From an uncultured Oscillospiraceae bacterium (lineage in GTDB: Bacteria > Bacillota > Clostridia > Peptostreptococcales > Anaerovoracaceae), in contig CAZTEH010000004.1 in assembly GCA_964612345.1 (NCBI GenBank), positions 18,265 through 82,264 of the forward strand: DNA of 64,000 bases. Direction: 5' to 3'. The notes beneath the pieces were generated by a model. It made no database searches. It saw only the letters and a list, made by a program, of their open reading frames with translations, and was not told where the DNA came from. Positions 28,085 through 47,497 of the stretch are shown here, one piece after another (position 1 is the stretch's first letter; each line of letters begins with the position of its first letter). The position numbers were made by a program, and so were the translations under genes.

Positions 28085-28525
28085 ATGGAACAGATTATAA
28101 ATAATAATAAAATAATAGCGATCTTAATTAGAGAAAGTTTTCAGGAATCAGGTGTTCATTTTTTCACTCCTGATGAGTTCTCACAGCAACTGGCATATAT
28201 GAATCATTCTGCGGGTAAAGTCATTGAACCACATGTTCATAATCCTGTCCACAGGAAAGTGCTTTATACTCAGGAGGTTTTAGTAATAAAAAGGGGTAAG
28301 CTTAAAGTAGACTTTTATTCAGACGACAAGCAATATCTAGAGAGCCGAATTTTAGAAAAGGGAGATGTGCTCTTGCTTGCTTCAGGGGGGCATGGCTTTG
28401 AAGTAATAGAGGACGTAACTATGTTTGAAATCAAGCAAGGACCATATGCAGGTGATACAGATAAAACGCGATTCCAAGGTGTAAAGCCGGAGGATTGTGT
28501 TGTTCGGGAGGATAATAATGAATGA
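28085..28525 (+). CDS. Cupin-fold protein (WbuC-like or sugar ketoisomerase-like)
   Basis: The track start is 28061; ATG 28085 follows GAAGGAAG. It has a His cluster (EPHVHNPVH) and a C-terminal FEIKQGPYAGDTDKTRF that resembles the WbuC-family E.K.GPF tail. It overlaps the next gene by 8 nt. Confidence 0.55.
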   Translation: MEQIINNNKIIAILIRESFQESGVHFFTPDEFSQQLAYMNHSAGKVIEPHVHNPVHRKVLYTQEVLVIKRGKLKVDFYSDDKQYLESRILEKGDVLLLASGGHGFEVIEDVTMFEIKQGPYAGDTDKTRFQGVKPEDCVVREDNNE

Positions 28526-29642: not shown

Positions 29643-29660
29643 AACTATAGGAGGAAAAGG

Positions 29661-30425: not shown

Positions 30426-31558
30426 GTAAAACAGCGATTTTAGTGCTAGCAGACGATAGAGGAATATCGACTTTTCCTGCAGTATATAATACCGCTGCGG
30501 AATTAAAGAAACGTGGATGGGGAGTAAAGATTTACACGGGGTCTATTTGTGATAACTCTGATGTCATGGCGTTATTTGATGAATATAAAGTTATAAAATC
30601 TAGCATTAACCTCAGAATTCGATTTTTAGCAGAAATATTTCTATTTAGCAGTAATCTTTTAAAGGTCAAGAATAAAAAACTTATTTTTGCCTTTGAGCCC
30701 CGTGATGCAATAGCATGCTCATTTGCATCATTTTTTAACAAACATTGCAAATATATTTATTACAATTTAGAAATTCAAGAATATGATTTTTCTTCTAATG
30801 AATCAAAACTGCTCAAGTTTTTAAAGATGGCTTCACAGGTGATTCGAAAAAAACTGGAAACGTTATATTCTCAAAATGCGTATGCATTAGTAATTCAGGA
30901 CAAAGTGAGATTGGAAATTTTAAAGAAACATGGGATTAGTAACAGCAAGTATTACTTTATCCCCAATTCTTATATGTCAGAGAATATTGAATGTTCAAAG
31001 GTAAAGCATAAGGATAAAGGAGATTTGCTGTATTGCGGTGGATTAGAAAAGTGGTCAATCAGCTCAATGATCGATAGCCTGCCAAGAATGGAAAGTCTAC
31101 GCTTAACATTTTCAGGATGGTCAAGGGATAATTATTTAAGCACGGTTGAACAAAAATTGCAAAGTTTGGGAGTTAAGGTATATAAGCAGAAATTATCGCT
31201 TGAAGATTATAAGGAGTTGATTCGAAATTATGATGTTGGCTTAGTATGGTACTCTGACCTATCCTCAGATAATGTTAGGTATATGGGCAGATCATCTGGT
31301 AAGTATTTTATGTTTTTAAGTCAAGGTAAACCGGTAATAGTTCAGAATTTGCCAGGTCTGGCAGATGATGTGAAACAGTATAGTCTAGGAGTTGTTTTAG
31401 AGTCTCTCGACCAACTAAATGAAGCCATGAAGGAGATTATGGAGAATTATGCAGATTACCAAAGGAACGTGATTAAAACATATAAAGATGTCTATGCATA
31501 TGAAAATGCATCGAAGACTTTTTTTAATGAGATAGATGTAATCGGCGATATTATATAA
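30422..31558 (+). CDS. Hypothetical GT-B-like protein (possible glycosyltransferase)
   Basis: ATG 30422 overlaps the upstream stop (ATGA) after GGGAG. The 378-aa protein starts MSKTAILVLADDRG. The C-terminal SGKYFMFLSQGKPVIVQNLPGLADDV resembles the GT-B nucleotide-sugar half. Confidence 0.35.
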   Translation: MSKTAILVLADDRGISTFPAVYNTAAELKKRGWGVKIYTGSICDNSDVMALFDEYKVIKSSINLRIRFLAEIFLFSSNLLKVKNKKLIFAFEPRDAIACSFASFFNKHCKYIYYNLEIQEYDFSSNESKLLKFLKMASQVIRKKLETLYSQNAYALVIQDKVRLEILKKHGISNSKYYFIPNSYMSENIECSKVKHKDKGDLLYCGGLEKWSISSMIDSLPRMESLRLTFSGWSRDNYLSTVEQKLQSLGVKVYKQKLSLEDYKELIRNYDVGLVWYSDLSSDNVRYMGRSSGKYFMFLSQGKPVIVQNLPGLADDVKQYSLGVVLESLDQLNEAMKEIMENYADYQRNVIKTYKDVYAYENASKTFFNEIDVIGDII

Positions 31559-31590
31559 TAAGACATATGAGAGAAAGGGATGTATGAACT

Positions 31591-32928
31591 ATGCATTTAC
31601 TATTACTGTCGGGTGGATCAGGCAAACGCTTATGGCCACTTTCCAATGAAATAAGATCAAAACAATTTCTGCAAGTATTGCCGGGCCCAAATGGAAAACT
31701 AGAGTCGATGGTGCAGAGAGTTTACCGTCAGCTGCAAGAGGTTGGAGGATGGAGTTCGATAACTGTTGCCGCTGGTACTTCACAGCGAGATCAACTTGGC
31801 TTGCAACTCGGCAAGGATGTGAATATCGTTATTGAACCTGAACGCAGGGATACATTTCCTGCGATTGCTTTAGCCTGCTCCTATTTATATAGTGAATGCG
31901 GTGTCAAAGAAGAGGAACCCATTGCAGTATTACCAGTAGATCCTTTTGTGGAATTGGATTATTTTAAAAACATTGCCAAATTTCCTGAGATTTTAGACTC
32001 TCTGGAGAATGGCCTTTTATTAATGGGTGCTAAACCGACTTTTGCATCAGAAAAGTACGGCTATATTGTGCCGACTGATGACAATATAATTTCAGATGTA
32101 AAGCACTTTAAGGAGAAACCTGATTTAGAAACTGCAAAGCAGTTAATTTCTGATGGAGCACTATGGAATTGTGGCGTTTTTGGACTTAGATTAGGATATA
32201 TTACTCAAATTTTAAAAAACAAATATGGTATTGCTGATATATCATATCAAAACATACTAAAAGAGTTTGAAAACTTAAGCAAAACAAGCTTTGACTATGA
32301 AGTGGTGGAGCACGCAGAAAAGATAAAAGTTTTAAAACATGAAGGATCGTGGAAGGATCTGGGAACATGGGAGACCCTTACTGAGGAAATGGCTTTAGAG
32401 GTATCTGGTGTTTCAAAGGTCGATCATTTGTGTAAAAACACTCATGTGATTAACGAACAAGAACTCCCTGTTATAACGATGGGTATTAGGGATGCAGTTG
32501 TGGTTGCTAGCCGGGATGGTATATTAGTAGCAGCGAAAGGTGAAACATATAGACTTAAAGAATTTGCTTCAAGTATTTGTACGAGACCTATGTGCGAAGA
32601 AAAACGATGGGGCAGATATATCGTCATAGAACATACCCGCTATGATGATGGAACAGAGGAACTAACTAAAAAGCTATATATAAACAAGGATCAGCAAATT
32701 AGCTATCAGTATCACAAAAAAAGGAAGGAAATATGGACTATTGTCCGCGGTGAAGGGATCTTGTACTTAAATGGTATGAAAAAGAATGTATTCCCAGGAG
32801 ATGCTGTTAAGATTAATGAAAACGAGAAGCATGCTATATTAGCAATAACTGATTTAGAAATTATTGAGGTGCAGCTGGGGAATCCTCTCGTGGAGGATGA
32901 TATTGTCCGATTAGAAATGGTATGGTAA
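31591..32928 (+). CDS. manC: Mannose-1-phosphate guanylyltransferase with C-terminal cupin domain
   Basis: [34 protein letters not shown] and GYIV motifs, plus a C-terminal cupin (RWGRY...[19 protein letters not shown]). Confidence 0.85.
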
Positions 32929-32956
32929 TATAATTTTATTGGAAGGGATAACTATT

Positions 32957-34039
32957 ATGAGTAAAATAGCATTAATAACAGGAATTACTGGTCAGGACGG
33001 TTCATATTTAGCAGAGTTTCTAATAGAAAAAGGATATGAGGTACATGGCATTATAAGAAGAAGCTCTTCTTTTAATACAGAAAGAATTGAGCACCTATAT
33101 ATAGATGAGGCAATAAAGGACATGCATAGTAAAAAGAAATTACAGCTTCACTATGGCGACATGACTGACTCTACAAATATTATAAGGCTTATTAAAGAAA
33201 TCCAGCCTAATGAAATATATAATTTGGCAGCGCAATCTCATGTAAAAGTTTCGTTTGAGGTTCCTGAATATACAGCGGATACAGATGGTATTGGCGTGCT
33301 AAGATTGCTCGAAGCTGTGCGATTTCTGGACATGCAAAAGACAGTTAAAATCTATCATGCATCAACATCTGAACTTTTTGGAAAAGTTCAAGAGATACCA
33401 CAAAAAGAAACCACCCCATTTTATCCGAGGAGTCCATATGCATGTGCGAAACTGTATGCCTATTGGATCATAAAAAATTATAGGGAAGCTTATGGGATGT
33501 TCGCTGTAAATGGGATTCTATTTAATCACGAGGGAGAAAGAAGGGGAGAAACTTTTGTTACACGCAAGATTACCCTAGCGGCATCCAGAATAGCGCAGGG
33601 AAAGCAGACTAAGCTTTATCTTGGTAATTTAAGTGCAAAAAGAGATTGGGGTTACGCAAAGGATTATGTCGAATGCATGTGGCTTATGCTACAGACTGAT
33701 ATACCCGATGACTTTGTTGTTGCAACTGGTGAAATGCATACGGTTAGAGAATTCTGTGACCTAGCATTCAAGGAAGCTGGGATAGAGCTAAGCTGGCAAG
33801 GTGAGGGTATTAATGAAAAAGGGATTGATAAAAAGACTGAGAAAGTTGTTGTAGAAGTAGATCCTCAATACTTTCGACCTACAGAAGTAGAACTTCTTTT
33901 AGGTGATCCTACAAAGGCAAAAATAGTATTGGGATGGAACCCAACCAAAACTAAATTTGAACAATTAGTTAAGTTAATGGTGAAGTCAGATATGGAAATT
34001 GTTAAGAAGGAAGATAGAATTAGGAGAGTATTTGACTAA
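32957..34039 (+). CDS. gmd: GDP-mannose 4,6-dehydratase
   Basis: [87 protein letters not shown]. The track start TTG 32939 is probably too early. Confidence 0.95.
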
Positions 34040-34965
34040 TGTATAAAGAAAGCAAAATATATGTTGCAGGGCACAGTGGACTAGTAGGTTCCGCAATAGT
34101 AAGGAACTTAAACAAACAGGGATTTTATAATTTGGTGAGAAAAACCCATAATGAACTGGATTTAACAAATCAAATCCAGGTAGAGGACTTTTTTGCTGCA
34201 GAGAAACCCGATTATATTTTCCTTGCCGCTGCTCGGGTTGGAGGGATTAAAGCCAACAGCAGCTATCCTGCAGACTTCTTTTTCATTAACTCTATGATAC
34301 AAAATAATGTAATAAATAATGCCTATAAATTTGGTGTGAAAAAGTTATTGTTTTTAGGCAGCTCTTGCATTTATCCGAAACTTTGCCCACAACCAATGAA
34401 AGAAGAATATTTGCTGTCTGGTTACTTAGAATTAACAAATGAAGCTTATGCTCTAGCTAAAATCTCAGGACTGAAAATGTGCCAATATTATAATACTCAG
34501 TACGGCACAAATTTCATAAGTTGTATGCCAACGAATTTATATGGACAAAATGATAATTTTGATTTGGATACAGCTCATGTTTTACCTGCGTTGATGAGGA
34601 AATTTCATGAAGCCAAGATAAAAGAAGCGTCACAAGTGGAAATATGGGGCACCGGAATGCCCATGAGGGAATTTCTTCATGTTGACGATATGGCAGACGC
34701 CTGTCTCTTTTTAATGGAGAATTATGACGGTCAGGAACATGTGAATATTGGAGCGGGCAAGGAATTATCCATAAAAGAATTAGCGGTTCTAATGAAAGAA
34801 ATTGTTGGCTATGAAGGTGAACTGGTCTTTGACGCCAGTAAACCCGACGGGATGAAGAGAAAACTGCTTGACACCAATAAGTTGAACAAATTAGGTTGGC
34901 ATCATAAAATAGGTCTATCTGAAGGAATCAAAGCTACTTATGATTGGTATTCAACACAACGATAA
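34039..34965 (+). CDS. fcl: GDP-L-fucose synthase (GDP-4-keto-6-deoxymannose 3,5-epimerase/4-reductase)
   Basis: [54 protein letters not shown], and start/stop overlap (TAATG) with gmd. Confidence 0.9.
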
Positions 34966-34987
34966 TAGAGTAAAATGGTGATAATTA

Positions 34988-35758
34988 ATGATTACAAATG
35001 GCAACGAAATGACTGAATTATGTACAATTATTACGGTCTGCTATAATAGCGAAGAATTTATCAAGCAGACGATTGAATCAGTGTTATATCAAACGTATAA
35101 GAATTTTGAGTATATAATAGTTGATGGTGGATCATCAGATGAAACTCTTAATATTATAAAATCATATGAACCAAAATTCGATGGAAGACTGAGGTGGATA
35201 TCCGAGCCTGATGGGGGCATTTATGACGCAATGAATAAAGGAATTTTATTAGCAAAAGGAAAATGGATTGGAATAATAAATAGTGACGATTGGTATGAGC
35301 AAGAGGCTATTAGTATGATAGCGAATTTATTTAGCAGTAACAATGATATTCAACTCATCCATGGAAAAATTAGGATAATTGACTTTAATAATAACTTTAA
35401 AAAAATCGTGGGAGGTTTGGAAGATGTAAAAAGGCTCTCATATAAAGATTTCATGCCCATTTGCCATCCAAGTTCTTTTGTAAGAATAGATGTATATAAT
35501 AAGTTAGGCTTGTTTAATCAACAGTATAAAATTGCTGCTGATTACGATTTTGTAATGCGGTGCGTAGAAGATAAAATAAATATAAGATATATTGATGAAA
35601 TAATTTGTAATTTTAGGGACGGTGGCATTAGTAATACTAATTGGAAAAAATCGCTAAAGGAATCATTAATAATAAAAAAAATTTATGACAATAGCAGAAT
35701 AATACCATATATAACTTTCCTGAGAAGCTATTTGATTAACTATATTAAATCTAAATAG
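34988..35758 (+). CDS. GT2-family (GT-A) glycosyltransferase
   Basis: CTIITVCYNSEEFIKQTIESVLYQTYKNFEYIIVDGGSSDETLNII and INSDDW (DXD). Confidence 0.85.
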   Translation: MITNGNEMTELCTIITVCYNSEEFIKQTIESVLYQTYKNFEYIIVDGGSSDETLNIIKSYEPKFDGRLRWISEPDGGIYDAMNKGILLAKGKWIGIINSDDWYEQEAISMIANLFSSNNDIQLIHGKIRIIDFNNNFKKIVGGLEDVKRLSYKDFMPICHPSSFVRIDVYNKLGLFNQQYKIAADYDFVMRCVEDKINIRYIDEIICNFRDGGISNTNWKKSLKESLIIKKIYDNSRIIPYITFLRSYLINYIKSK

Positions 35759-35781
35759 TAATGGTGATTGAGGAAGTATTA

Positions 35782-36885
35782 ATGAAAACAATTTTTGTCA
35801 ATGCCACAGCTACAACAACAGGTGGAGGATTAATCATACTGCAACAATTTTTGGAGACCTTACCAATTCAGGATACTGATAATGTTTATTACGTGTTTTG
35901 CGCTGCGGATGCTGTAAATAATTATAACGGTAGTAATATAAAAATCATTAACAATATATATAAGAGAAAGTGGATCGGCAGAATTTTATGGGATAATTTC
36001 GGAATTGAAAAGTGGATGAAAAACTGTAGAGTTAAACCGGATTTAATAGTGTCATTTCAAAATACTGGTGTTAGGCTTGGCAGAAGAATCAAACAGATAA
36101 TTTATTATCATCAATCTATACCGATGTATGAGTACCAGTGGTCATTAATAAAGAAGCAAGAAAGAAAGCTATGGATTTATAAAAATATTTATCCATGGTT
36201 TGTTAAGAAACATTTTTATGCAGATGATGTACTCGTTGTACAGAGTTCTTGGATGAAAGAGGCTAGTAGTAAAGTCCTTGATATACCATTAGATCGTATT
36301 AGGATTATTAAACCAACGATACAATTATATGGACATATTAAAGCCAGTCCAAAACGTAAATCTGAAAGGGAGAGTTTCAATATATTCTATCCAGCATCCG
36401 GCGTTGCATTTAAGAATCATAAAATAATATATGATGCATTAATAATTATAGCTAATACTAGGAAAGAGCTATTTAAAAACATAAAGTTTTATATTACACT
36501 AGAAAATGACGAAAAATTACATCAATATAATTCAGAGCTAAACGAAAACATTATATTCTTAGGACAATTAGAATACTCAAAATTGCTTGAATTCTATCCC
36601 CAAATGGATTTAATGGTGTTCCCAAGTTATTTGGAAACAGTGGGGTTACCATTATTAGAAGCCGCATATTTTGGGCTTGAAATCATAGCTTCAGATTTGC
36701 CGTATGCTATGGAGGCAGTAAGTGAATATAATGGAGCTAGTTTTGTAAAACATGACGATGCACGGACTTGGGCTGATGCGATAATTTCTGCATATGAGAA
36801 TCAGAAGAAATATGATGGATTTTTGCCTAATCAAAATAACAGTTGGGAAGATATGTTTCTGTTAATAAAGCAACAATTGATGTAG
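35782..36885 (+). CDS. GT-B glycosyltransferase (GT4 family-like)
   Basis: ATG 35782 follows GAGGAAG (track start 35761). The C-terminal VFPSYLETVGLPLLEAAYFGLEIIASDLPYAMEAV is an E-X7-E motif. Confidence 0.8.
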   Translation: MKTIFVNATATTTGGGLIILQQFLETLPIQDTDNVYYVFCAADAVNNYNGSNIKIINNIYKRKWIGRILWDNFGIEKWMKNCRVKPDLIVSFQNTGVRLGRRIKQIIYYHQSIPMYEYQWSLIKKQERKLWIYKNIYPWFVKKHFYADDVLVVQSSWMKEASSKVLDIPLDRIRIIKPTIQLYGHIKASPKRKSERESFNIFYPASGVAFKNHKIIYDALIIIANTRKELFKNIKFYITLENDEKLHQYNSELNENIIFLGQLEYSKLLEFYPQMDLMVFPSYLETVGLPLLEAAYFGLEIIASDLPYAMEAVSEYNGASFVKHDDARTWADAIISAYENQKKYDGFLPNQNNSWEDMFLLIKQQLM

Positions 36886-36897
36886 AGGTGTAAAACA

Positions 36898-37917
36898 ATG
36901 TTTAAAAATAAAATACTGTTAATAACAGGTGGAACCGGATCTTTTGGTAATGCTGTTTTAAAAAAATTTTTATCTAGTGATGTTGCGCAGATCCGAATTT
37001 TTTCACGTGACGAAAAAAAACAGGACGATATGAGGAATCTGTACAAGAACGATAAAATTAAATATTATATCGGAGATGTAAGGGACTATTATAGTGTCAT
37101 GAACGCAATGCACGGCGTGGACTATATTTTCCATGCGGCCGCGTTAAAACAGGTACCTTCATGTGAGTTTTTTCCCATGGAGGCTGTAAAAACAAATGTA
37201 GTCGGTACAGATAATGTTCTGACTGCCGCGATTGAAGCAAAAGTCAAAAAGGTTATATGCCTTTCCACAGACAAAGCCGCTTATCCGATCAACGCCATGG
37301 GGATATCAAAGGCGATGATGGAAAAGGTTTTTGTGGCAAAATCCAGAACGATTGACGATAAAAAAATGACGATTTGCGGGACAAGATATGGTAATGTAAT
37401 GGCTTCCAGAGGTTCTGTAATACCGCTTTTTGTCGATCAAATCAAAAAAGGTTTGCCATTGACTATCACGAATCCGAATATGACCAGATTCCTTATGAGT
37501 CTGGATGAGGCAGTGGAATTGGTCGAATTTGCTTTTAAGCATGCGGATAACGGTGATTTAATGGTCCAAAAATCACCGGCTTGTACAATAGAGATTTTGG
37601 CGCTCGCCGTAAAGGAAATCTTCAAAGCAGACAATCCGATAAAGACGATTGGAACCAGACATGGAGAGAAGTTGTTCGAAACACTCCTGACAAAAGAGGA
37701 ATATGCAAAAGCTGTGAATATGGAAGAGTATTTTAAGGTCCAGGCAGATAAAAGAGATTTAAATTACGACCAGTACTTTTTTGAAGGCGATGAACGCTTG
37801 TCACGGGAGGATGAATACACATCCCATAACACAGAACGTTTGACACTGAAACAGGTTAAGGAAAAATTAATGACATTGGATTATATCCGGGAAGAATTGA
37901 AAGAATGGGGCAAATAA
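36898..37917 (+). CDS. UDP-GlcNAc 4,6-dehydratase/5(3)-epimerase of the CapE/FnlA/WbjB/QnlA type
   Basis: MFKNKILLITGGTGSFGNAVLKKFL...IRIFSRDEKKQDDMR...HAAALKQVPSCEFFPMEAVKTNV...LSTDKAAYPINAMGISKAMMEKVFVAKSR...GTRYGNVMASRGSVIPLF. From memory this is nearly collinear with S. aureus Cap5E. Confidence 0.9.
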   Translation: MFKNKILLITGGTGSFGNAVLKKFLSSDVAQIRIFSRDEKKQDDMRNLYKNDKIKYYIGDVRDYYSVMNAMHGVDYIFHAAALKQVPSCEFFPMEAVKTNVVGTDNVLTAAIEAKVKKVICLSTDKAAYPINAMGISKAMMEKVFVAKSRTIDDKKMTICGTRYGNVMASRGSVIPLFVDQIKKGLPLTITNPNMTRFLMSLDEAVELVEFAFKHADNGDLMVQKSPACTIEILALAVKEIFKADNPIKTIGTRHGEKLFETLLTKEEYAKAVNMEEYFKVQADKRDLNYDQYFFEGDERLSREDEYTSHNTERLTLKQVKEKLMTLDYIREELKEWGK

Positions 37918-37918
37918 A

Positions 37919-38776
37919 ATGCGGTTTCTGATTTTCGGAGCTTCCGGCATGGCGGGCCATACAATCGTTGCTTATCTGATGGAGCAGGGGCACGATGTGA
38001 CATCGTTCTCCAGACAGCCCTTGAATTATTGTAATAAGGTCGTGATCGGCGATGTATTAAATGATCAGGTAATCGAAAAGGCAATACGGGAAAACAATTA
38101 CGATGTTATTGTAAATTGTGTCGGAGTTTTAAATCAGACTGCAGAAGAGGACAAGCCAAAAGCTGTATTGCTGAATAGCTATCTACCGCATCGAATCAGC
38201 TCCTGTGCGAACCGGTATGGATCCAGGCTCATTCAAATGAGCACTGATTGTGTATTTTCCGGAAACACTGGTGGGTATCAGGAAGATTCCTTACCGGACG
38301 GGAAAACCTTTTATGATCGGACGAAGGCTTTAGGGGAAGTCAATGATGCCGTGAATCTGACATTTCGAAATTCCATTATCGGACCGGATATCAATCAAAA
38401 GGGAATCGGATTATTCAACTGGTTCATGAAGCAATCGGGTAGCCTATCGGGTTTCAATAAAGCGATCTGGACGGGTGTGACAACCTTGACACTGGCAAAG
38501 GCAATTGAAGCCGCAGCGGAGCAGAATCTGACCGGCATTTATCATTTGGTCAACAATAAGACGATCAGTAAGTACGAGTTGCTTAAGCTATTCAATTATT
38601 ATTTTAAAGCGGATAGACTAACGATTTCGCCTAATGATAAGGTAAACGTGGATAAGTCATTGATCAACACCAGAAAGGATTTTGATTTCATAGTGTCTGA
38701 TTATGATGTTATGGTTATGCAAATGCACGATTGGATCGACGGGCACAAGGAATTCTATCCGCACTATTTTAAATAA
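37919..38776 (+). CDS. RmlD-like SDR reductase (WbvR/QnlB type rather than CapF/FnlB type)
   Basis: 285 aa with MRFLIFGASGMAGHTI, STDCVFSG and YDRTKALGE (YxxxK). Its size and architecture fit dTDP-4-dehydrorhamnose-reductase-like C4 reductases, not the ~370-aa two-domain CapF. Confidence 0.65.
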   Translation: MRFLIFGASGMAGHTIVAYLMEQGHDVTSFSRQPLNYCNKVVIGDVLNDQVIEKAIRENNYDVIVNCVGVLNQTAEEDKPKAVLLNSYLPHRISSCANRYGSRLIQMSTDCVFSGNTGGYQEDSLPDGKTFYDRTKALGEVNDAVNLTFRNSIIGPDINQKGIGLFNWFMKQSGSLSGFNKAIWTGVTTLTLAKAIEAAAEQNLTGIYHLVNNKTISKYELLKLFNYYFKADRLTISPNDKVNVDKSLINTRKDFDFIVSDYDVMVMQMHDWIDGHKEFYPHYFK

Positions 38777-38791
38777 TATAAGAGGTATAAG

Positions 38792-39919
38792 ATGAATACA
38801 AAGTTGAAAGTGATGACCATTATCGGTACCAGGCCGGAGATTATAAAATTAAGCGAGATCATAAAAAAATGTGATGTCTACTTTGACCATATTCTGGTCC
38901 ATACGGGACAAAATTGGGACTATACACTGAACAAGGTGTTCTTTGAGGAGCTGGGCCTGCGTGAACCTGATTATTATCTGGACTCAGTGGGGAAAAATCT
39001 TGGTGAAACAATGGGCAATATCATAGCCAAGTCCTATGATCTGCTGGTTGAGGTAAAGCCGGATGCGCTTCTAATCCTGGGCGACACCAATTCAGCACTT
39101 TCCGCTATATCCGCAAAACGATTGAAGACACCGATTTTTCATATGGAAGCGGGCAACCGATGCTTTGACGAAAACCTTCCAGAGGAAATCAACAGAAAGA
39201 TCGTAGATCATATCAGCGATATTAATTTGCCTTATACTGAGCATGCCCGCAGATATCTGCTGGCGGAAGGTATTCGGAAAGAGCATATCTATGTCACCGG
39301 CTCACCCATGTTTGAGGTGATCGACAAATACAGAACGCAGATCGAAGAGAGCGATATCCTGAAACCGCTGGAATTGGAGAAGAGTAAGTATATCATTGTC
39401 TCGGCTCATAGAGAAGAAAATATAGATAATGAAAAAAATTTCCTTTCACTGATGACGGCAATCAATCGAATTGCAGAAATTTACAATATGCCTGTGGTTT
39501 ATTCCACACATCCCAGAAGCAGGAAATTTATTGACGAAAGAGGATTCCAATTCCATAAGCTGGTACGGAGCCTGAAACCGTTTGGTTTCTTTGACTACAA
39601 CAAGCTGCAGCTCAATGCATTTTGTGTGCTGTCCGACAGCGGAACGTTGGCGGAGGAGACAGCGATCCTGAAATTTCCATCCGTCTCGTTGCGAACTTCA
39701 ACGGAGCGGCCGGAGGCACTTGATAAAGGCGGTATGGTCTTAGGCGGCATAAAAACAGATAATATCCTGCAGGCCGTAGAGCTATCTAGAACGATGTGGG
39801 AGAACGGTGACAAGGGGATCGATGTCCCGGCATATTCTGATGGGAATGTATCGGGGAAGATCGTGAAAATGATCCAGAGCTATACGAAAATAGTCAATAA
39901 GGTTATCTGGGACAAATAG
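38792..39919 (+). CDS. UDP-HexNAc 2-epimerase, non-hydrolysing (CapG/FnlC/QnlC/WbvD type)
   Basis: KVMTIIGTRPEIIKLS, HTGQNWDY, LILGDTNS and HMEAGNRCFDENLPEEINRKIVDHISD. Confidence 0.9.
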   Translation: MNTKLKVMTIIGTRPEIIKLSEIIKKCDVYFDHILVHTGQNWDYTLNKVFFEELGLREPDYYLDSVGKNLGETMGNIIAKSYDLLVEVKPDALLILGDTNSALSAISAKRLKTPIFHMEAGNRCFDENLPEEINRKIVDHISDINLPYTEHARRYLLAEGIRKEHIYVTGSPMFEVIDKYRTQIEESDILKPLELEKSKYIIVSAHREENIDNEKNFLSLMTAINRIAEIYNMPVVYSTHPRSRKFIDERGFQFHKLVRSLKPFGFFDYNKLQLNAFCVLSDSGTLAEETAILKFPSVSLRTSTERPEALDKGGMVLGGIKTDNILQAVELSRTMWENGDKGIDVPAYSDGNVSGKIVKMIQSYTKIVNKVIWDK

Positions 39920-39944
39920 AACGTTACAAATCAAATCATAGAAA

Positions 39945-39990
39945 AAGACAGCCTGCTTCCGATCATTTCAGGATCTGAAGCAGGCTTTTT
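39945..39990. terminator. Bidirectional terminator between the convergent glycan transcription units
   Basis: GCCTGCTTC (39951-39959) pairs with GAAGCAGGC (39977-39985). It is flanked by AAAAA upstream and TTTTT downstream. The stop codon of the minus-strand GT lies in the loop. Confidence 0.7.
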
Positions 39991-41285
39991 ATAAAGTTTT
40001 CTGAGGAAAAATGCTCTTCATAATATTTTCTGGAATTCTTCCCGTATTGGCTGACTGCGGAGGGATCGGCAGCGTGTCCGTAACAAAGGCTGGCAAATTG
40101 GTAAAGGTTTTCTGCAAGGGTTAGATGTTCTTCTGCCTCACAAACCAGTCCGCATTCCGCTTCCTGGATCACAGCGGCGGTTTCGCCATCAATAGCAGCT
40201 AAAATCGGCTTTCCTGCAGCCATATATGTCTGCACCTTATTCGGAAGTGTGCTGGATATCACGTCATCCTTCTTCAAAGTTATGAGCATAGCATCGGCGA
40301 TACTGTAAAATTGGGGCATTGCCTCCAACGGATGCCGGCCGTGAAAGACCACACCTGCTTTAAGCCCTGTTTCGCTCGGATTCTCTGCCTCTGCATCGCT
40401 GACTAGGATATCCAGCTCTTTTGCAAGTGTGATACTGTTCTCATAAGCTGATCCATCTCCCACAATATGGACCAGTACGGGGTATGGCAATTGTTTTTTA
40501 GAGTGTAATAGATCCAACTTCAATTCATAGACTGCCTTCAGAATCGTTTCTACACCCTGCATTTTTCCGATGTTGCCGGCAAAGACAAAATTACAGACAT
40601 CGGATACCGACTCGGAACAGATGCTTTCGGGGCCGGAAAATAAATCTTGAGCAAACATGGGGATATGTGTAATGGGCCCCTTATAGTCGAGTATTTCTCT
40701 TAAGTATTTGTCAAAATGTCTCGAGCTTGTGATAATGTGATCACACTTATTGTAAATGTAACGGCTGATCAGCTTAATTGTATTATAAAAGAATCCATGA
40801 TTTTTCAGCCCTACAGAGACGATGCTTTCAGGCCAAAGATCAAAGCAATACAAAAACATAGGCAGCTTTAACTTTTTCTTGAGAATAATTGCGGGGATCC
40901 CCATTGTGACTGGAGAATACTGTGTTACCAAAATCCGATCGAAAGTGGTACCGGATTTTTTCGATTGCTTTGCAATACGGTAAGCTGCACGGGAAGCGTT
41001 GAACGCAAAGCTTAAATAATTGAGCATCAAATTCCGTTTGCCAGTTTTTCGAGGATAAAGCCTGCATCGGAGCACGTTGACATTATTGATCAACTCAGTA
41101 AAGATTCCGTGAGATGTATTTTTCAAATCTCGCCACTGATATTCAGGAAAAATTTTTCCCATCGGATAATTCGGCTGTCCTGTGAGCACCGTCACCTCAT
41201 GCCCGAGAGAGGCCAATTTGGAGCAGATGTCGTTGACTCCAAACTGTTCGGGATAATAATATTGAGAGATAATCAAAAATTTCAT
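39963..41285 (-). CDS. GT4-family glycosyltransferase of the WbuB/Cap5L type (candidate 6-deoxy-L-HexNAc transferase)
   Basis: GAGGAG RBS. MKFLIISQYYYPEQFGVNDICSKLASLGHEVTVLTGQPNYP is the typical WbuB-like N-terminus. C-terminal LPNKVQTYMAAGKPILAA. Confidence 0.75.
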   Translation of the reverse strand: MKFLIISQYYYPEQFGVNDICSKLASLGHEVTVLTGQPNYPMGKIFPEYQWRDLKNTSHGIFTELINNVNVLRCRLYPRKTGKRNLMLNYLSFAFNASRAAYRIAKQSKKSGTTFDRILVTQYSPVTMGIPAIILKKKLKLPMFLYCFDLWPESIVSVGLKNHGFFYNTIKLISRYIYNKCDHIITSSRHFDKYLREILDYKGPITHIPMFAQDLFSGPESICSESVSDVCNFVFAGNIGKMQGVETILKAVYELKLDLLHSKKQLPYPVLVHIVGDGSAYENSITLAKELDILVSDAEAENPSETGLKAGVVFHGRHPLEAMPQFYSIADAMLITLKKDDVISSTLPNKVQTYMAAGKPILAAIDGETAAVIQEAECGLVCEAEEHLTLAENLYQFASLCYGHAADPSAVSQYGKNSRKYYEEHFSSENFIKSLLQILK

Positions 41286-41308
41286 GGCAACTCCTCAATC
41301 GATTGAAT

Positions 41309-42259
41309 TTAACCCCGATATTTAATAATGCCGTAGTCCACACGGACCCCGCTCAGGTATTCCTCTACTTCTTCTTTAATTCCATCTTCAAAAGAAAGCG
41401 GATCGTAGCCAAAATCATTCTTTGCATCTGCATGACTAAATGCCTTGTCCTCCTGCATTCTCATTACCTGTTCAACGGTAATGATAGCATTTTTAAACAA
41501 TGCATTATAGACCTTTGCCGCTAAAATCGAGAAAGAAATCGGGATAGGGATAATCTGGATATTACTGCCTATATAGGAACGAATGATCTTTATTATTTTC
41601 AGGTAGGAAATCTGATCTTTGCCGGATAGGTTGTACTCCTTATTCATCGTTTTGTCTGGGTTCAGCAGCACATCATAATAGGCATTTCCAAGATCTCTCG
41701 CATGCACCGGCTGCATGAGATTCTGACCGTTGCCGAACAGTGGAAAGATCCTATGCTCTTTCAAATATCCGATCAATCGATACATATTTCTATCAGCGGA
41801 GGATCCGTAAATCATAGTTGGTCTTAATACGGTGCAATTCAGAATACGTTCTCCGTTTTGATTGAACACCTTATGACCAATTATTTCATCCTCGATATTA
41901 ATATAAACTTCGGATGCACTCTTATATTTTGAAAAACGACCAGTGGTATGGACAAGAATTACCCAATTGGCATGACTTCTGATTGCTGAATTAACAATTA
42001 TTAAAGAACGCGTAATCCCTGCAATATGGATAACCGTCTGGACTCCCTTCATTGACTCGATTAAGAAATCCTCATCCTCAATATTACCGACAACGAATTC
42101 AATGTCCAGACTGCATTGGTCGAATATTTTATATTTCTCTGGTGTCTTTTCTCGGCTGTCTCTCATTACACAACGAATCCTGCCCTGGTATCCCTCGGAT
42201 GCAAGTCTTTTTAACAGCCATTTACCACTGTGTCCCGTAATTCCTGTAATATACAACAT
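41309..42259 (-). CDS. NAD(P)-dependent sugar epimerase/reductase (Cap5N-like SDR)
   Basis: MLYITGITGHSGKWLLKRL Rossmann start, 316 aa. It lies immediately downstream of the small phosphoglycosyl transferase, as in the S. aureus cap5M-cap5N arrangement. Confidence 0.7.
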   Translation of the reverse strand: MLYITGITGHSGKWLLKRLASEGYQGRIRCVMRDSREKTPEKYKIFDQCSLDIEFVVGNIEDEDFLIESMKGVQTVIHIAGITRSLIIVNSAIRSHANWVILVHTTGRFSKYKSASEVYINIEDEIIGHKVFNQNGERILNCTVLRPTMIYGSSADRNMYRLIGYLKEHRIFPLFGNGQNLMQPVHARDLGNAYYDVLLNPDKTMNKEYNLSGKDQISYLKIIKIIRSYIGSNIQIIPIPISFSILAAKVYNALFKNAIITVEQVMRMQEDKAFSHADAKNDFGYDPLSFEDGIKEEVEEYLSGVRVDYGIIKYRG

Positions 42260-42279: not shown

Positions 42280-42900
42280 TTATAGATTCGCTTTCGGCCC
42301 GCCTTCGGAAACACCTTTCCGCGCAAGTACGCTGAATATGGTCATAACGAATATACGAACATCCAAAGAGAAACAGATATTTTTCGCATAGAAGCCATCT
42401 AGTTCCGCCTTGACGTCAATCGGCAGTTCATCTCTACCGTTTACCTGCGCCCATCCTGTTATTCCGGGTTTCATTGAGTTGGCGCTGATTCCTGTCTTCG
42501 ATTTCTGATTTTCTCTCGCCTGCAGGAGATCGTATTGGTTCCATAAAGCCGGTCTGGGACCAATAAATGACATCTCCCCATTTAGGATATTCAGAAGCTG
42601 AGGAAGTTCATCAAGACTTGTTTTTCTGAGGATTTTACCAGATTTGGTTATATAGCTTTCAGGATCCTGAAGAAGATGAGTCGGAGTATCTTTCGGTGCG
42701 TTTGCCATCATTGTTCTGAACTTATATATTTCAAAAAAAACTCCGCTTTTCCCAAATCTCTTCTGCTTAAATAAAACTGGACCCTTGGAATCCAGTTTTA
42801 TTATAAGTGAAATCAAGAATAATATCGGTGCCAGCAATACAATCAGACATAGAGCAAAGATACGATCTAAGATCTGCTTAACATGAAGATACAGTTTCAT
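42280..42900 (-). CDS. Small monotopic phosphoglycosyl transferase (PglC/Cap5M/WbaP-C-terminal type, Bac_transf)
   Basis: 206 aa with one N-terminal re-entrant helix (IFALCLIVLLAPILFLISLIIKL), then DSKGPVLFKQKRFGKSGVFFEIYKFRTM, DELPQLLNIL.GEMSFIGPRP and PGITGWAQVNGR. Confidence 0.9.
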   Translation of the reverse strand: MKLYLHVKQILDRIFALCLIVLLAPILFLISLIIKLDSKGPVLFKQKRFGKSGVFFEIYKFRTMMANAPKDTPTHLLQDPESYITKSGKILRKTSLDELPQLLNILNGEMSFIGPRPALWNQYDLLQARENQKSKTGISANSMKPGITGWAQVNGRDELPIDVKAELDGFYAKNICFSLDVRIFVMTIFSVLARKGVSEGGPKANL

Positions 42901-42921: not shown

Positions 42922-44886
42922 TTATTCTATATTTGAGTGAGCTTTCAGCATCATATTGATTGAGATACCCATACCGAGCAGTCCGTAAAACATTGGCATA
43001 ACAGATACAGTGCTATCGTTCACGAATCCAGAAACAAGAAATCCACAGATACCAAGGAATATACCAACACCAGTATAAGTGATAAAGCGATCGTATTTAG
43101 CACGCCGATATATTGAAAAGCTTTGTATAATGTAAATCCCCCAAAGAACCAGCAATGAGAGCATTGAGATTCCGCCCGTTCCAATAATCGCATCAAAGTA
43201 CATGTTATGAGGTTTATCAACGACAATATTTATATTAGTTGAAAATGTACCAGAATTATATTTGCCGACATAATCGTCATGAGGGAAATAGATACAGAAA
43301 GTATCAGCACCATGCCCTAATATTAGAGTATCCTTCATTAGAGGGATTGATCTTGACCAAATGTAGCCACGACCACTACCAAAGCCTTGGTTATTTTTCC
43401 ATCCGATTGCATCTACTTTACGCAAATCAATTATCTTGCCAAATCCATTTAAGTATTTGGGGCCATCTGCTGTAATCATAAATGGCCATTCGTCTCCATT
43501 TGTTCCAATTACAAAATAATGATTTGAACTTTCATCTTGAGCAGGTCTAACCGTGATCAACTTAAATCGGGGATCATTGACTTTATAAATTGGAGTGACA
43601 TTTGTAGGAGCCAAATCCAAGATATTATCTTCAGAATCACTGATTTGCAAAGCGATTGGATCATCAGGGAATGTTTTGAATTTCACTTCATTGCCATCGA
43701 AACTTAAAACAATTGAATCTCCGGAGATTGTCATATAGTCTAATTTATGTTGAACATTTGAATCAGTACTAACACCTGGAGAAGTTGAAGTATCTGTTGC
43801 TGAAAGTTCAGACTGGACAGATCCGCTCTTTCCCAATACACTATCGATGGCATTAGTTAATTCGGGAAGCCATCTTTCATAACTAATACCGGCGATTACA
43901 ATGGTTAAAGCTAGTAGGATTGTAACGGGTTTCCACCACTGTATGATTCTTTTGTTAAGAACAATAATTCCTATCATAACAACAACAGCCATACCTAAAA
44001 GTCCACCTGACGAGGCAGAACCTATCAAGTTAAAAATTAGCAGAGTGAACAATGCGCCCCAGGTAAATTTTCTCCACAATGGTTCTTTATCTTGTTTCAT
44101 AACAGACATTATAAATATCATGCCGAACAATGGAATAAGTAATGTTAAGTAAAAAGATACATAGTTTATATTATAAACAGTTTGATATATTTCTTTGTTT
44201 TGGAAAGTAAAATTTAAACTATCAACATCTTTCCAGAACCAACTTGGAGTTAATAATTTTTTACCAATATCAGTTCTGAAAAAATCATGATCGAGTGCCT
44301 GTGTCAATCCTAGGATTCCCAAAAGAGCGCTCGTTACAGCAAGTGGATATACAACCCATTTAACATCCCGTTCTGTACGTATCGTATTGATAACATAGAA
44401 TAAAACGATCATATAGCCTAAAAGAGAAAGCGTGCCTTCAAATCGATCGTTCCAACCCCATAAAGCAAATATCTTGTAATCTGAGGTGGCATAAGATAAT
44501 AAAACAAAAACTGTATAGATTATCATCGGGATATATGCAAAGCTTCGTTTTAAGGAAAAAGATTGTGAAAAAACTCTATATAAGAGAAGTACTAATACAA
44601 AGACAGCACATATAATTATTGCTTGCATTTTATAGTAACTGAAAAAGTCAGTTAGCTGATTTTTTCCGCCGCTCCAAAAAAACTGGCTCATTGGTCTTTC
44701 GTAAATGACCATTCTAGTGAGTATGATAATAACCGCAGTGAAAATGGATATTGGAAGCATTTGGAACCAATGAGTATTCTCACCTATTTTTGGCGCACAA
44801 CTCATATTATAAAGATAACCTGGTAAAAATCTATTGCTATTATTTACTTTCTTTTCTACATCCTTTTTCTTTGTATCCTTCGACAT
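42922..44886 (-). CDS. Wzy_C (O-antigen ligase/PglL/WsaB-type) polytopic membrane protein with an enlarged external loop; candidate O-oligosaccharyltransferase
   Basis: 654 aa, GGAGG RBS, about 10 TM segments in residues 40-335 and 2-3 in 570-650. The loop carries the ligase-type signatures GSGRGYIWSRSIPLMKDTLILGHGADTF and KPHNMYFDAIIGTGGIS (compare RL.iW...l.....P..G.G.G.F and aHN.yL..l.E.G..G). Confidence 0.7.
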   Translation of the reverse strand: MSKDTKKKDVEKKVNNSNRFLPGYLYNMSCAPKIGENTHWFQMLPISIFTAVIIILTRMVIYERPMSQFFWSGGKNQLTDFFSYYKMQAIIICAVFVLVLLLYRVFSQSFSLKRSFAYIPMIIYTVFVLLSYATSDYKIFALWGWNDRFEGTLSLLGYMIVLFYVINTIRTERDVKWVVYPLAVTSALLGILGLTQALDHDFFRTDIGKKLLTPSWFWKDVDSLNFTFQNKEIYQTVYNINYVSFYLTLLIPLFGMIFIMSVMKQDKEPLWRKFTWGALFTLLIFNLIGSASSGGLLGMAVVVMIGIIVLNKRIIQWWKPVTILLALTIVIAGISYERWLPELTNAIDSVLGKSGSVQSELSATDTSTSPGVSTDSNVQHKLDYMTISGDSIVLSFDGNEVKFKTFPDDPIALQISDSEDNILDLAPTNVTPIYKVNDPRFKLITVRPAQDESSNHYFVIGTNGDEWPFMITADGPKYLNGFGKIIDLRKVDAIGWKNNQGFGSGRGYIWSRSIPLMKDTLILGHGADTFCIYFPHDDYVGKYNSGTFSTNINIVVDKPHNMYFDAIIGTGGISMLSLLVLWGIYIIQSFSIYRRAKYDRFITYTGVGIFLGICGFLVSGFVNDSTVSVMPMFYGLLGMGISINMMLKAHSNIE

Positions 44887-45135: not shown

Positions 45136-46182
45136 ATGAAAAGGGTTATTACATTTATCCTGCTATTATCATTATTTACTAGCAATTTATTAATATCATA
45201 TGCGGCTTCATCAGACACTCCGCCTTCAAATCAAAGAAAAATAATAGTCTATTTGAAACCTGACGTTTCTGTGGAGTTCAACAATGTTAAACAGGCATTT
45301 CGTGACCTAAATGGATCAGTAGTTTATCCAATTATATACAACGGTTCGACTTATTTACCTATTCGGGCTGTTTCAGGAATAATGAAAGAACCTATCGAAT
45401 GGGATGGAGCCAGTAAAACAATTTTCATTGGAAGAACTCTTTCGAATCCAAACAAAACCTCTGTCGATACAAGTACCGCTTCTGCTATAGCAATAAGTGA
45501 GGTGGACGAAAGTCGTATTTCTTTAAAAGCTGATTTGGTTAATGCATATTTAAAACCGGATATTTTGGTAATGTATGATTTTACACTCCAAACCTTCATA
45601 GATGTAAATGGAGTGCAGATTTATCCAATCATTTATAATGGGACAACCTACCTGCCAATTCGAGCTATCTCTGAGTTGATGAAAGAGCCTATCGAATGGG
45701 ACGGAATTAAGAAAACTGTTTACATAGGAGATGGCGAAGAAACGCAGCAAGAAAACACTGTAGAAGAGGAAGAGGTTAGCCTGGCAACGAAAAATCTTAT
45801 TAGCTTGTTTGAGCGGGAAGAGGTACTTTACTATGAAGCAACAGCGAAAACCACAAGCTTAAAAGATATTGTTTCTTTAGATGAAAAACAAATAATAGCA
45901 ACAGCAATTAGTGATAATTATTTACAAGCACAAAATTTAACCCTAGAAATAAAAGCAGTAGATATTTCAAATTATACAGATGAAGAAATAGCGACTTATA
46001 ATAAATTAATAGCTTTCGCTGAAAGTACTGAATATTATATTCTCGTATTAGAAAACATTGCTTATCTGGCGGCACAAGACTCAGATTATTCAATGCTTGC
46101 GGAGACATTCTTATACTTTGCGATGGATTGCCAGACTAAAATGGAAGAAACCAGGACTTTAGTGCAGGGTTTAAATCAATAA
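45136..46182 (+). CDS. Secreted protein with two copper-amine-oxidase N-terminal-like (stalk) domains and a helical C-terminal domain
   Basis: GAGGGGG RBS and signal peptide. It carries two copies of YPIIYNG(S/T)TYLPIRA(V/I)S..MKEPIEWDG..KT(I/V)(F/Y)IG, typical of the Cu_amine_oxidN1 family. Confidence 0.8.
   Translation: MKRVITFILLLSLFTSNLLISYAASSDTPPSNQRKIIVYLKPDVSVEFNNVKQAFRDLNGSVVYPIIYNGSTYLPIRAVSGIMKEPIEWDGASKTIFIGRTLSNPNKTSVDTSTASAIAISEVDESRISLKADLVNAYLKPDILVMYDFTLQTFIDVNGVQIYPIIYNGTTYLPIRAISELMKEPIEWDGIKKTVYIGDGEETQQENTVEEEEVSLATKNLISLFEREEVLYYEATAKTTSLKDIVSLDEKQIIATAISDNYLQAQNLTLEIKAVDISNYTDEEIATYNKLIAFAESTEYYILVLENIAYLAAQDSDYSMLAETFLYFAMDCQTKMEETRTLVQGLNQ
45244..45729 (+). repeat. 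Internal duplication (two ~63-aa stalk domains)
   Basis: Residues 37-99 and 136-198 align without gaps over most of their length. Confidence 0.8.
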
Positions 46183-46273: not shown

Positions 46274-47497
46274 TTATTTTATCGTTGCGGTTTTAACTCC
46301 GACACCGCTGCTAAGTCCATAATCGTTTACCGCAAGAACATACTCCAATAATGCTTTGGAGTACGATAATTGCTGATTATAATAACCAAGCTGTGCTTCC
46401 TCTACATCAGATAATGTTGCCATCCCAGAATCATATTGAAGTTGGGTTAATCTAACAGTTTCTTTTGAGTTCTCAACAGCCTTCTTTCCAGTCTGCACGG
46501 CAGAATACTTTTGATTCATTGCCATGTATTTTGTTCTGACATCATTTTCAACAGTTAGAGGTGCATTCTTATATCCGGTCTCGGCAGATAACATGGCCAT
46601 CTTTGCGGCAATATACTTTGAAGAAGTCGATGGGAGCTTTGAATAATTAGCAAATGATAGTTTCGTCATATCCCTATTATATAAGGCTTCTGCTATTTCA
46701 TTTCGATTAATCAAAGCGGACTTAATAGAATCTTGTAACGATTTTGTTGACAAAGGGATTTCTTTTATTGTGTCGGTTAATGCTACTTTTTGCATTAAGT
46801 CATATCCCATGAATTGATTAAAGGACATTTTCATAGTATTAAGACCATTTGCTGCAGCCGAAAACTGATCTTTTGCTTCGTAAACGGACACTTCTGCTTT
46901 CAACACATCATTTTTGGATACGGTTCCAAGTTTATATTTTAACTGTGTATTTGATAGAAGTTTTTCTTTTAACGCTAAATTATCTTTTGCAATTTGTTCC
47001 TGATTTTCAAGCTCCTTAAAAGTATAATAATTATTAAGTGTATCTGTTTTCAGTTTGTTTATTTCCGCATCATAATTCTTTGGCCCTTGAGTCGTTGCAT
47101 AAGCTCTATTATATTTCAGCATTGCTTTGTTGGAATTATCATACTCCCAGAATGAAGCAGGATCATTTTCTGCTTTATTTATATTTTTAACTGATTCTCC
47201 ATATCCTTGAGCAACACCATAAGAATTCTGCTTATTCAGTTCAGCCATCTGAGCCCCTGAGCTGTCTGCAAGCATTTTTTTATAGGCATTATCAAGGGTT
47301 AGATTGATTGGTGTTCCCGTAAAGGTCATATCAGGAACGATAGTAACGGCTGCCCCTGTCGTTTCTATGGCTGATGATGTAGTAGTGATTGTTCCTGTAG
47401 CTGCAACGGTAGTTTTCGCTGACTCTGCTGCAAAAGCTACAGTGATTCCGCTCAGTATTAATAATAATACCAGGCTTGTACATAAAACTTTTTTCAT
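46274..47497 (-). CDS. TolC-like (outer membrane efflux protein family) secreted protein
   Basis: 407 aa with signal peptide MKKVLCTSLVLLLILSGITVAFA. Two OEP-type halves carry LTLDNAYKKML..., LKYKLGTVSKNDVLKAEVSVYEAK and LTQLQYDSGMATLSDVEEAQLGYYNQQLSY..ALLEY. Confidence 0.65.
   Translation of the reverse strand: MKKVLCTSLVLLLILSGITVAFAAESAKTTVAATGTITTTSSAIETTGAAVTIVPDMTFTGTPINLTLDNAYKKMLADSSGAQMAELNKQNSYGVAQGYGESVKNINKAENDPASFWEYDNSNKAMLKYNRAYATTQGPKNYDAEINKLKTDTLNNYYTFKELENQEQIAKDNLALKEKLLSNTQLKYKLGTVSKNDVLKAEVSVYEAKDQFSAAANGLNTMKMSFNQFMGYDLMQKVALTDTIKEIPLSTKSLQDSIKSALINRNEIAEALYNRDMTKLSFANYSKLPSTSSKYIAAKMAMLSAETGYKNAPLTVENDVRTKYMAMNQKYSAVQTGKKAVENSKETVRLTQLQYDSGMATLSDVEEAQLGYYNQQLSYSKALLEYVLAVNDYGLSSGVGVKTATIK

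Follow-up and report, generated by a model that had tools for sequence, protein, structure and literature searches.

We analysed a 64,000-nucleotide stretch of DNA from an uncultured Oscillospiraceae bacterium (assembly GCA_964612345.1, contig CAZTEH010000004.1, positions 18,265 to 82,264; hereafter the window), which GTDB places in the Anaerovoracaceae, with a focus on a gene that encodes a 654-residue protein of the O-antigen-ligase type (hereafter the ligase). Our analysis showed that the Pfam domain Wzy_C of this protein is genuinely interrupted by an insertion, residues 346-494, and that the insertion carries a beta-rich module, predicted to fold on its own, in the same loop as the catalytic residues. 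Relatives of the ligase have kept this module, mostly in one copy and in a few cases in two or three. The segment had been singled out in a prediction made from the sequence letters (the original prediction), which took it for an extra extracytoplasmic domain of ~165 residues that could recognise acceptors such as S-layer proteins. Here we describe the insertion, its distribution and its setting, and weigh what the module may do. The coordinates of all features are collected in Table 1.

An insertion in the catalytic loop

The DNA at 43387-43881 on the reverse strand translates to residues 336-500 of the 654-residue open reading frame (ORF), exactly the segment of the original prediction. When the intact ligase is compared with Wzy_C (PF04932), it scores 29.2 bits, short of Pfam's gathering cut-off of 31.7, and matches in two separate stretches, the profile being broken between positions ~70 and 74 by ~150 extra residues. 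The best stretch covers residues 490-576, which correspond to profile positions 74-146 of 149, in agreement with the claim that the ligase-type signatures are confined to the distal part of the loop. Deletion of residues 346-494 in silico gave a 505-residue product that matched Wzy_C contiguously, from profile position 2 to 146 of 149, and scored 44.5 bits. Distant family members reach 42-58 bits without any modification, above the cut-off. The relative P0149, a protein of 499 residues (locus L082, 2855-4354), has a short linker where the ligase has the insert, with 41% identity before this point and 56% after it. Because of the excision result, the 403 residues of WaaL compared to the 654 of the ligase, and the module-less P0149, we conclude that canonical WaaL/Wzy loops lack this segment, which is an addition and not a normal part of them. 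The proposal of an added segment in the catalytic loop therefore held, and it can be refined into a helix extension, a linker and a module of ~110 residues.

The helix extension comprises residues 336-351 in the AlphaFold2 (AF2) model. The disordered linker behind it is among the three most Ser/Thr-rich segments of the window, varies in length among relatives, and shows a pairwise identity of merely 15-20%. In the module, ten strands span residues 382-479 of the full-length model, with a predicted local distance difference test score (pLDDT) of ~80-85. When residues 376-500 were modelled alone, with 34 homologous segments aligned, the pLDDT was 91.6 and the predicted template modelling score (pTM) was 0.83. 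As the isolated segment folds confidently and as the copy number varies, with tandem copies in relatives, we consider the module an autonomous domain, which is what the original prediction had envisaged in proposing a self-contained beta-rich domain after a Ser/Thr linker.

The module matched no Pfam or NCBIfam family. In the Foldseek comparison that had been proposed, together with structure prediction, as a check on the segment, no significant fold was found in PDB (best E 0.4) or BFVD (best E 0.06), with template modelling scores of ~0.5 or less. Scattered weak Foldseek matches to beta-trefoil, lectin and OspA-like structures were discounted, none of them being better than E 0.05. Kinship of the module with the neighbouring Cu_amine_oxidN1 domain was considered as well and rejected (hhalign probability 0.9%). 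A module-only profile gave no scored match in a collection of 5.8 billion proteins, family members included, and because of word-index limits this search is uninformative on distribution. An old internal duplication is suggested by a weak alignment between the two halves of the module (37 columns, hhalign probability 65%, E 6e-5). The module is without catalytic residues, and conservation within it is highest at D417, F469, D438-x-R440-F/Y441, and several glycines.

Enzyme class and topology

We predict that the ligase is a WaaL-type, His-dependent GT-C enzyme. A full-length AF2 model built on 35 homologues (mean pLDDT 70) has 12 transmembrane (TM) helices, and its sole meaningful fold match in PDB is WaaL (7tpg_B; Foldseek probability 1.00, template modelling score 0.53 on the 403-residue target). 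When scanned against Pfam at E<=1, the ligase matched Wzy_C and, by chance, DUF2631 and nothing else, and an NCBIfam scan gave no match. Searches of PDB chain sequences, with both the single ligase protein and the family profile, yielded nothing useful, so the relationship to WaaL rests on fold and Pfam. The catalytic part of the loop contains the motifs GSGRGYIW (with R506), GHGADT (with H525 and D528), and DKPHNMY (with H560). R506 and H560 are invariant in our alignments of both close (A1) and distant (A2) relatives, and the catalytic His is present in 117 of the 118 cluster representatives that match the motif. A His at this loop position has been reported for O-antigen ligases and an Asp or Glu for Wzy-type polymerases, and the criterion for a ligase is a loop Arg that binds the diphosphate together with a loop His that activates the acceptor (PMC10920833). 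The ligase has His rather than Asp/Glu at this position and thus lacks the signature of the Wzy-type polymerases (BP-Pol, GT122-135).

A single large loop of ~225 residues connects TM9 (ending at ~334-351) to TM10 (starting at ~562). One big loop between the final TM blocks had been predicted correctly, and the size given for it, about 235 residues, is close to this value. Lys and Arg are concentrated at the N-terminus and in the short loops 108-117, 169-176, 264-278, 311-317, and 585-600, and the TM9-TM10 loop, counted over 224 residues, is net acidic, with 18 Lys and Arg residues compared to 28 Asp and Glu residues. Because of this positive-inside charge pattern and the WaaL-like arrangement of 12 helices, we place the TM9-TM10 loop outside the cytoplasm. 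The topology, as judged from hydropathy, charge and the AF2 model, thus puts the insert on the extracytoplasmic rather than the cytoplasmic side, and the models support a position of the module directly ahead of the first catalytic helix of the loop.

Distribution, copy number and divergence of the module

Of the 2543 relatives that an exhaustive HMMER search over 1.84 billion cluster representatives recovered at E<=0.001, 1105 reached E<1e-30. The best 150 relatives are mostly 590-680 residues long, and most of them are co-linear with the ligase in one stretch that includes the loop, down to ~30% identity. All 22 distant members that were aligned have the module. With each species represented by a single genome, relatives turned up in at least 595 genomes, mostly of Clostridia, including Anaerovoracaceae, Oscillospiraceae, Lachnospiraceae, Clostridium, Desulfosporosinus, Ruminiclostridium, and Anaerocolumna. 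We also found 488 homologues of the ligase, and the 120 listed share 54-85% identity with it and are 624-715 residues long; several of those listed are labelled “O-antigen ligase family protein”, and the genera represented include Aminipila, Anaerovorax, Sinanaerobacter, and Anoxybacterium, all Anaerovoracaceae. Cultured carriers of the gene are Anaerovorax odorimutans DSM 5092, Aminipila, Sinanaerobacter chloroacetimidivorans, and Anoxybacterium hadale. An identical ligase protein is already present in a public collection. DNA of the window was detected in rock and groundwater metagenome runs, the only source from which the organism is known, and its sequence was absent from RNA runs, which thus gave no evidence of expression. 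The insert is the normal condition in the ligase’s own large subfamily and not a peculiarity of the window gene.

Copies of the module were counted with a local module hidden Markov model (HMM) in 135 full-length representatives. One copy is present in 123 of them, two copies in two (P0180 and P0199), and three tandem copies in a further three (P0166 with 844 residues, P0186 with 910, and P0202 with 984), while none was detectable in seven. The additional copies all occupy the same site in the loop. When applied to 1.05 Mb of sequence from the window and related loci, the module HMM matched ligase ORFs exclusively. In some cases ligase paralogues, each with a beta module, lie next to each other in one locus, as three consecutive ORFs in L078 and two in L041. 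The only clear module-less relative is P0149, in which a Phe replaces the catalytic His (DKPFNLY) and whose gene overlaps the start of an ABC_tran and FtsX gene pair in an apparent operon; this protein is possibly a non-catalytic or repurposed paralogue.

To describe divergence along the protein, pairwise identity was computed for each region in the close and distant sets. The catalytic loop is the most conserved region (74% in A1 and 52% in A2), and values for the other regions are 67% and 31% for TM1-9, 64% and 41% for TM10-12, 44% and 19% for the beta module, and 20% and 15% for the linker. The module has therefore been retained, yet it diverges faster than the catalytic core.

Comparison with known glycan ligases

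The ligase resembles WaaL of Cupriavidus metallidurans (GT121; PDB 7TPG) in its 12-TM GT-C fold, in the location of the catalytic elements in the TM9-TM10 loop, and in the conserved Arg and His of this loop, and a donor linked to undecaprenyl diphosphate (Und-PP) is expected. It differs from WaaL, which has 403 residues and no inserted domain, in the ~150 extra residues at the start of the loop, and it has no sequence-level match to any PDB chain. The acceptor must also differ from that of WaaL, because we take the clostridial relatives to be Gram-positive bacteria without lipid A-core.

A Wzy_C/WaaL-like core is also shared with PglL, PglS, and TfpO/PilO of Gram-negative bacteria. O-oligosaccharyltransferases transfer Und-PP-linked glycans en bloc to secreted proteins at Ser/Thr, the genes of dedicated enzymes frequently neighbour that of the substrate, and PglL_A and Wzy_C_2 accompany Wzy_C in the known members (PMC12645811). 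Neither PglL_A nor Wzy_C_2 was detected in the ligase by the Pfam scan at E<=1. These accessory domains of the PglL class are separate Pfam families, whereas the module is nested within Wzy_C and varies in copy number.

Ligase-type S-layer glycosylation has been described for WsaB of Geobacillus stearothermophilus and WsfB of Paenibacillus alvei, with a C-terminal TPR motif in WsfB and a separate TPR protein for WsaB (PMC2943079). In C. difficile Ox247, mutants of Orf19 lose S-layer glycosylation, and the glycan is attached to Thr-38 (PMC6254364). The likeness to these systems lies in a Wzy_C-type protein encoded in or beside an S-layer glycosylation locus with a PGT (phosphoglycosyl transferase) and an ABC transporter, and the window has this setting of genes, in which five SLH proteins (1-11.8 kb) are joined by the ligase, the PGT and, within the glycan locus at 13-42 kb, an ABC exporter. 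WsaB and WsfB differ in having TPR instead of an in-loop beta module, a distinction drawn from their published descriptions. No TPR was found in the ligase by the Pfam scan, and the “sorted_by_XrtN” match reported for Orf19 from CDD has no counterpart in the ligase in NCBIfam. An additional globular domain is also present in WadA of Brucella and Mesorhizobium, a bimodular GT121-GT25 O-antigen ligase (PMC10920833). In WadA this domain is an appended GT25 of cytoplasmic type, whereas the module of the ligase is predicted to be extracytoplasmic, sits in the catalytic loop, and is non-enzymatic by all searches. A domain nested in the Wzy_C loop is not described for the PglL class, WsfB or WadA, and our full-text literature searches returned no description of the beta module. 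The architecture is new as far as these searches go; the proteins that have it can already be found in databases, listed with a generic label.

Gene content and composition of the window

Pfam matches in the glycan biosynthesis locus include NeuB, a CMP-transferase, genes for GDP-mannose-derived sugars, FnlABC-like genes, glycosyltransferases, and methyltransferases (Table 1). On the same strand, the ligase is followed by the PGT, an epimerase, and a GT4 glycosyltransferase. A nonulosonic-acid pathway lies at 14774-23167 on the forward strand, with a dehydratase, a DegT aminotransferase, a CBS-NTP transferase, a PglD-like acetyltransferase, NeuB, and the CMP-transferase, and then the ABC exporter. 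Two soluble proteins without a clear family are also encoded on the forward strand, one of 567 residues (23224-24927) with a weak match to Capsule_synth (18.3 bits) and one of 388 residues (30392-31558), and both may be unusual glycosyltransferases. Eight locus proteins were scanned for TM segments, which, besides those of the ligase, were found in the ABC exporter and the PGT alone, and the window proteins scanned gave no match to the Wzx, Wzz, or LCP families. The presence of an ABC exporter, with no Wzx, Wzy or Wzz found, fits a pathway in which the glycan is completely assembled in the cytoplasm, flipped by the ABC protein, and transferred en bloc.

Table 1. Features of the window, with the ligase and its parts first (positions are those of the window)
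Feature	Position	Strand	Evidence
Ligase gene: intact ORF, 654 aa, O-antigen-ligase type (Wzy_C, GT-C)	42922..44886	-	
TM helices 1-9, residues 40-351 (including helix extension 336-351)	43834..44769	-	Hydropathy and charge, DSSP of AF2 model
Insertion relative to canonical Wzy_C, residues 346-494	43405..43851	-	In-silico excision, module-less relative P0149
Disordered Ser/Thr-rich linker, residues 352-379	43750..43833	-	pLDDT<50 over residues 354-378
All-beta module, ten strands, residues 380-490 (~110 aa)	43417..43749	-	AF2
Catalytic part of the loop, residues 491-561	43204..43416	-	Wzy_C profile positions 74-146
TM helices 10-12, residues 562-654	42925..43203	-	Hydropathy, AF2 model
Small PGT (Bac_transf), predicted maker of the lipid-linked donor	42280..42900	-	Pfam, 200.8 bits
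Glycan biosynthesis locus	13142..42259		Pfam
Fused ABC exporter (ABC_membrane and ABC_tran), candidate flippase for lipid-linked glycan	21383..23167	+	Pfam
Five SLH-domain surface proteins, candidate acceptors	1094..11802		Pfam SLH, 58-126 bits
Secreted Cu_amine_oxidN1-domain protein, between ligase and TolC-like gene	45136..46182	+	Pfam, 54.9 bits
TolC-family (OEP) secreted protein, candidate acceptor	46274..47497	-	Pfam OEP, 80 bits

The SLH-domain proteins, which are encoded beside the glycan locus and which we regard as candidate acceptors, have 972 residues (with Big_5), 800 residues (with GLUG), 209, 480, and 799 residues. Upstream of the ligase lie the Cu_amine_oxidN1 gene and the gene of the second candidate, the TolC-like protein, which has a Thr/Ser/Ala-rich N-terminal tail of degenerate repeats after its signal peptide, AESAKTTVAATGTITTTSSAIETTGAAV, and may be a dedicated glycosylation substrate. 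We take the Anaerovoracaceae to be a Gram-positive lineage with a single membrane, in which a TolC-like protein would act without an outer membrane. Homologues in this family are named “TolC family protein” and contain degenerate repeats like (S/G)A(I/V)(D/E/T)TT. In most of the 91 homologues scored, the tail is 17-94 residues long, and three are without a measurable tail.

The ligase is present in all 80 related loci. A homologue of the PGT was found by tblastn in 31 of these and lies within three genes of the ligase in 19, and each of the sugar-synthesis genes occurs in 0-17 of the 80. The TolC-like homologue is present in 18 of the 80 loci, within three genes of the ligase in 14, and directly upstream of it in nine. 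Near the ligase, SLH proteins are encoded in 11 of 83 loci and Cu_amine_oxidN1 proteins in 12 of 83, including one beside P0166. The gene for P0166, a distant member with three modules, lies amid surface-protein genes (SLH, Big_1, RCC1, and Cu_amine_oxidN1) with no glycan genes nearby. In L043, L046, L049, and L055, from metagenome-assembled genomes of uncultured Clostridia and Lachnospiraceae, the ligase gene is followed by genes read by eye as pgk, tpi, and gpmI, a housekeeping setting without adjacent glycan genes.

The original prediction had also held that the ligase gene is much more AT-rich than the adjacent PGT gene and was acquired separately. The first part is correct, as the ligase gene has 35.2% GC (30% at third codon positions, GC3) compared to 40.9% GC (GC3 41%) for the PGT gene. 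However, a GC content of 28-39% prevails from 13 to 37 kb, over most of the locus, and values of 35-36% were measured for the Cu_amine_oxidN1 and TolC-like genes. GC3 is 21-35% in 13142-36885 and in 42922-47497, that is, in the rest of the glycan locus and in the ligase, Cu_amine_oxidN1 and TolC-like genes, whereas it is 41-52% in the FnlA-FnlB-FnlC-GT4-epimerase-PGT block (36898-42900), which resembles the housekeeping flank at 48-62 kb. The composition of the window is a mosaic in which the outlier is the FnlA-to-PGT block and not the ligase. Because the ligase matches most of the locus in GC and is found in all 80 related loci, its separate acquisition is unsupported.

Proposed role of the module and alternatives

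In the mechanism that we propose, the adjacent small PGT and glycosyltransferases encoded in the locus would assemble the glycan on undecaprenyl phosphate, the fused ABC exporter would flip it across the membrane in lipid-linked form, and the ligase would move it en bloc on the membrane's outer face. The chemistry would be carried out by the conserved R506 and H560 of the TM9-TM10 loop. At the start of this loop, the subfamily has gained an insertion that consists of a flexible Ser/Thr linker and a duplicable, self-folding module of ~110 residues, and the module most likely works on the acceptor or cell-wall side, where it would dock or position secreted surface proteins or extend the reach of the enzyme. 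Proteins that have Ser/Thr-rich segments are candidate acceptors, among them the SLH proteins and the Thr-tailed TolC-like neighbour. Our results show the fold, the insertion with its autonomy, topology and distribution, and the variation in copy number, and we infer the donor pathway, a protein as the acceptor, and docking by the module. For the explanation as a whole, a WaaL-type en bloc ligase with an acceptor- or wall-side module, we consider the chances to be about even.

We favour an acceptor- or wall-side role because the module has no catalytic residues, diverges fast, varies in copy number, sits on a flexible tether, and is accompanied by surface-protein neighbours; the simplest such role would be the docking of secreted proteins that have Ser/Thr-rich segments. 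Recognition of the acceptor by the module is plausible and would suit the five SLH proteins of the window and the Thr-rich tail of the TolC-like neighbour. Precedents are the ligase-type S-layer glycosylation in Firmicutes (WsaB, WsfB, and Orf19) and the dedicated O-oligosaccharyltransferases encoded beside their substrates. A bolder form of this idea would make the module an undescribed domain family specific to clostridial ligase-type enzymes, serving as the acceptor-docking element of dedicated protein O-glycosylation systems; in this lineage the module would guide the enzyme to the Thr tail of the TolC-like protein and/or to SLH proteins, with one to three copies tuning reach or valency; we regard this form as doubtful.

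Several observations weigh against an en bloc protein ligase with a docking module. SLH, Cu_amine_oxidN1, and TolC-like neighbours occur in just 11-18 of ~80 loci, and in several clostridial loci the ligase gene is followed by glycolytic genes, read by eye as pgk, tpi, and gpmI. The conserved positions of the module look structural, with no obvious binding site. The full-length AF2 model is of moderate confidence, and some stretches of the catalytic loop are weakly modelled. Finally, the gene for the three-module P0202 adjoins one for a Wzz+GNVR protein, which fits work on polysaccharide rather than on protein.

This last point belongs to an alternative in which the enzyme polymerises a cell-wall or capsular glycan, or ligates it to a lipid or glycan, and the module is a carbohydrate-binding or chain-handling element that tracks the donor or the polymer as it grows. 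The surroundings of P0202 (L081, 11501-12781) contain a CapD-like dehydratase and toxin-antitoxin pairs in addition to the Wzz+GNVR protein, and they hint that some family members may act in polysaccharide pathways. Wzy_C proteins are a group that includes polymerases. The sugar genes vary between related loci while the ligase is found in every one of them, and the module is a fast-evolving part, as would be expected if it tracked variable glycans. For GT121 members of Gram-positive bacteria, a role in the attachment of capsule to the wall has also been suggested (PMC10920833). However, the catalytic His that essentially all members possess is the signature of a ligase and not of a polymerase, no Wzx, Wzz, or LCP was seen among the window proteins scanned, the module matches no family or fold of carbohydrate-binding modules or lectins, and some members lie amid surface-protein genes without nearby glycan genes. 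We consider work on polysaccharide rather unlikely.

The module might instead recognise nothing and act as a passive spacer or cap that lifts or shields the catalytic loop in a thick Gram-positive envelope, its copies setting the reach. A copy number that ranges from zero to three at one site would suit such a part, as would the flexible Ser/Thr linker of variable length ahead of it, the conserved positions that are mostly hydrophobic-core or turn residues, and the possible internal duplication of a simple beta-meander noted above. This is unlikely in our judgement, since retention of one copy in 123 of 135 representatives, down to ~30% identity, argues for a selected function, and since P0149, the one relative that clearly lacks the module, is also without the catalytic His and lies in a different operon, which indicates that loss of the module accompanies loss or change of function. 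Lastly, that the segment is an ordinary WaaL/Wzy loop or a misreading, in a gene recently acquired alone as its lower GC content than that of the PGT gene might suggest, is very improbable in view of the excision test, the lengths of WaaL and P0149, the GC content that the ligase shares with most of the locus, and the synteny of the ligase and TolC-like genes in many relatives.

Implications

To our knowledge, the acceptor choice of ligase-type enzymes is poorly understood, especially in Gram-positive bacteria, and we know of only a few Gram-positive S-layer glycan ligases characterised genetically (WsaB, WsfB, and Orf19) and of none characterised structurally. The module described here is a concrete candidate for a specificity element, as it is predicted to be self-folding, varies in copy number, and belongs to a family found in the genomes of at least 595 species. 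Even if it is only a spacer, its description is a useful annotation, since it would be a new domain inside proteins currently labelled as the “O-antigen ligase family”. The finding would gain in interest should the module turn out to determine acceptor specificity. On the bolder form of the docking idea, the subfamily would be the missing O-oligosaccharyltransferase for surface glycoproteins of Clostridia. If the module docks acceptors, it would help to predict which clostridial proteins are glycosylated and could be used to retarget O-oligosaccharyltransferases for the production of glycoconjugates.

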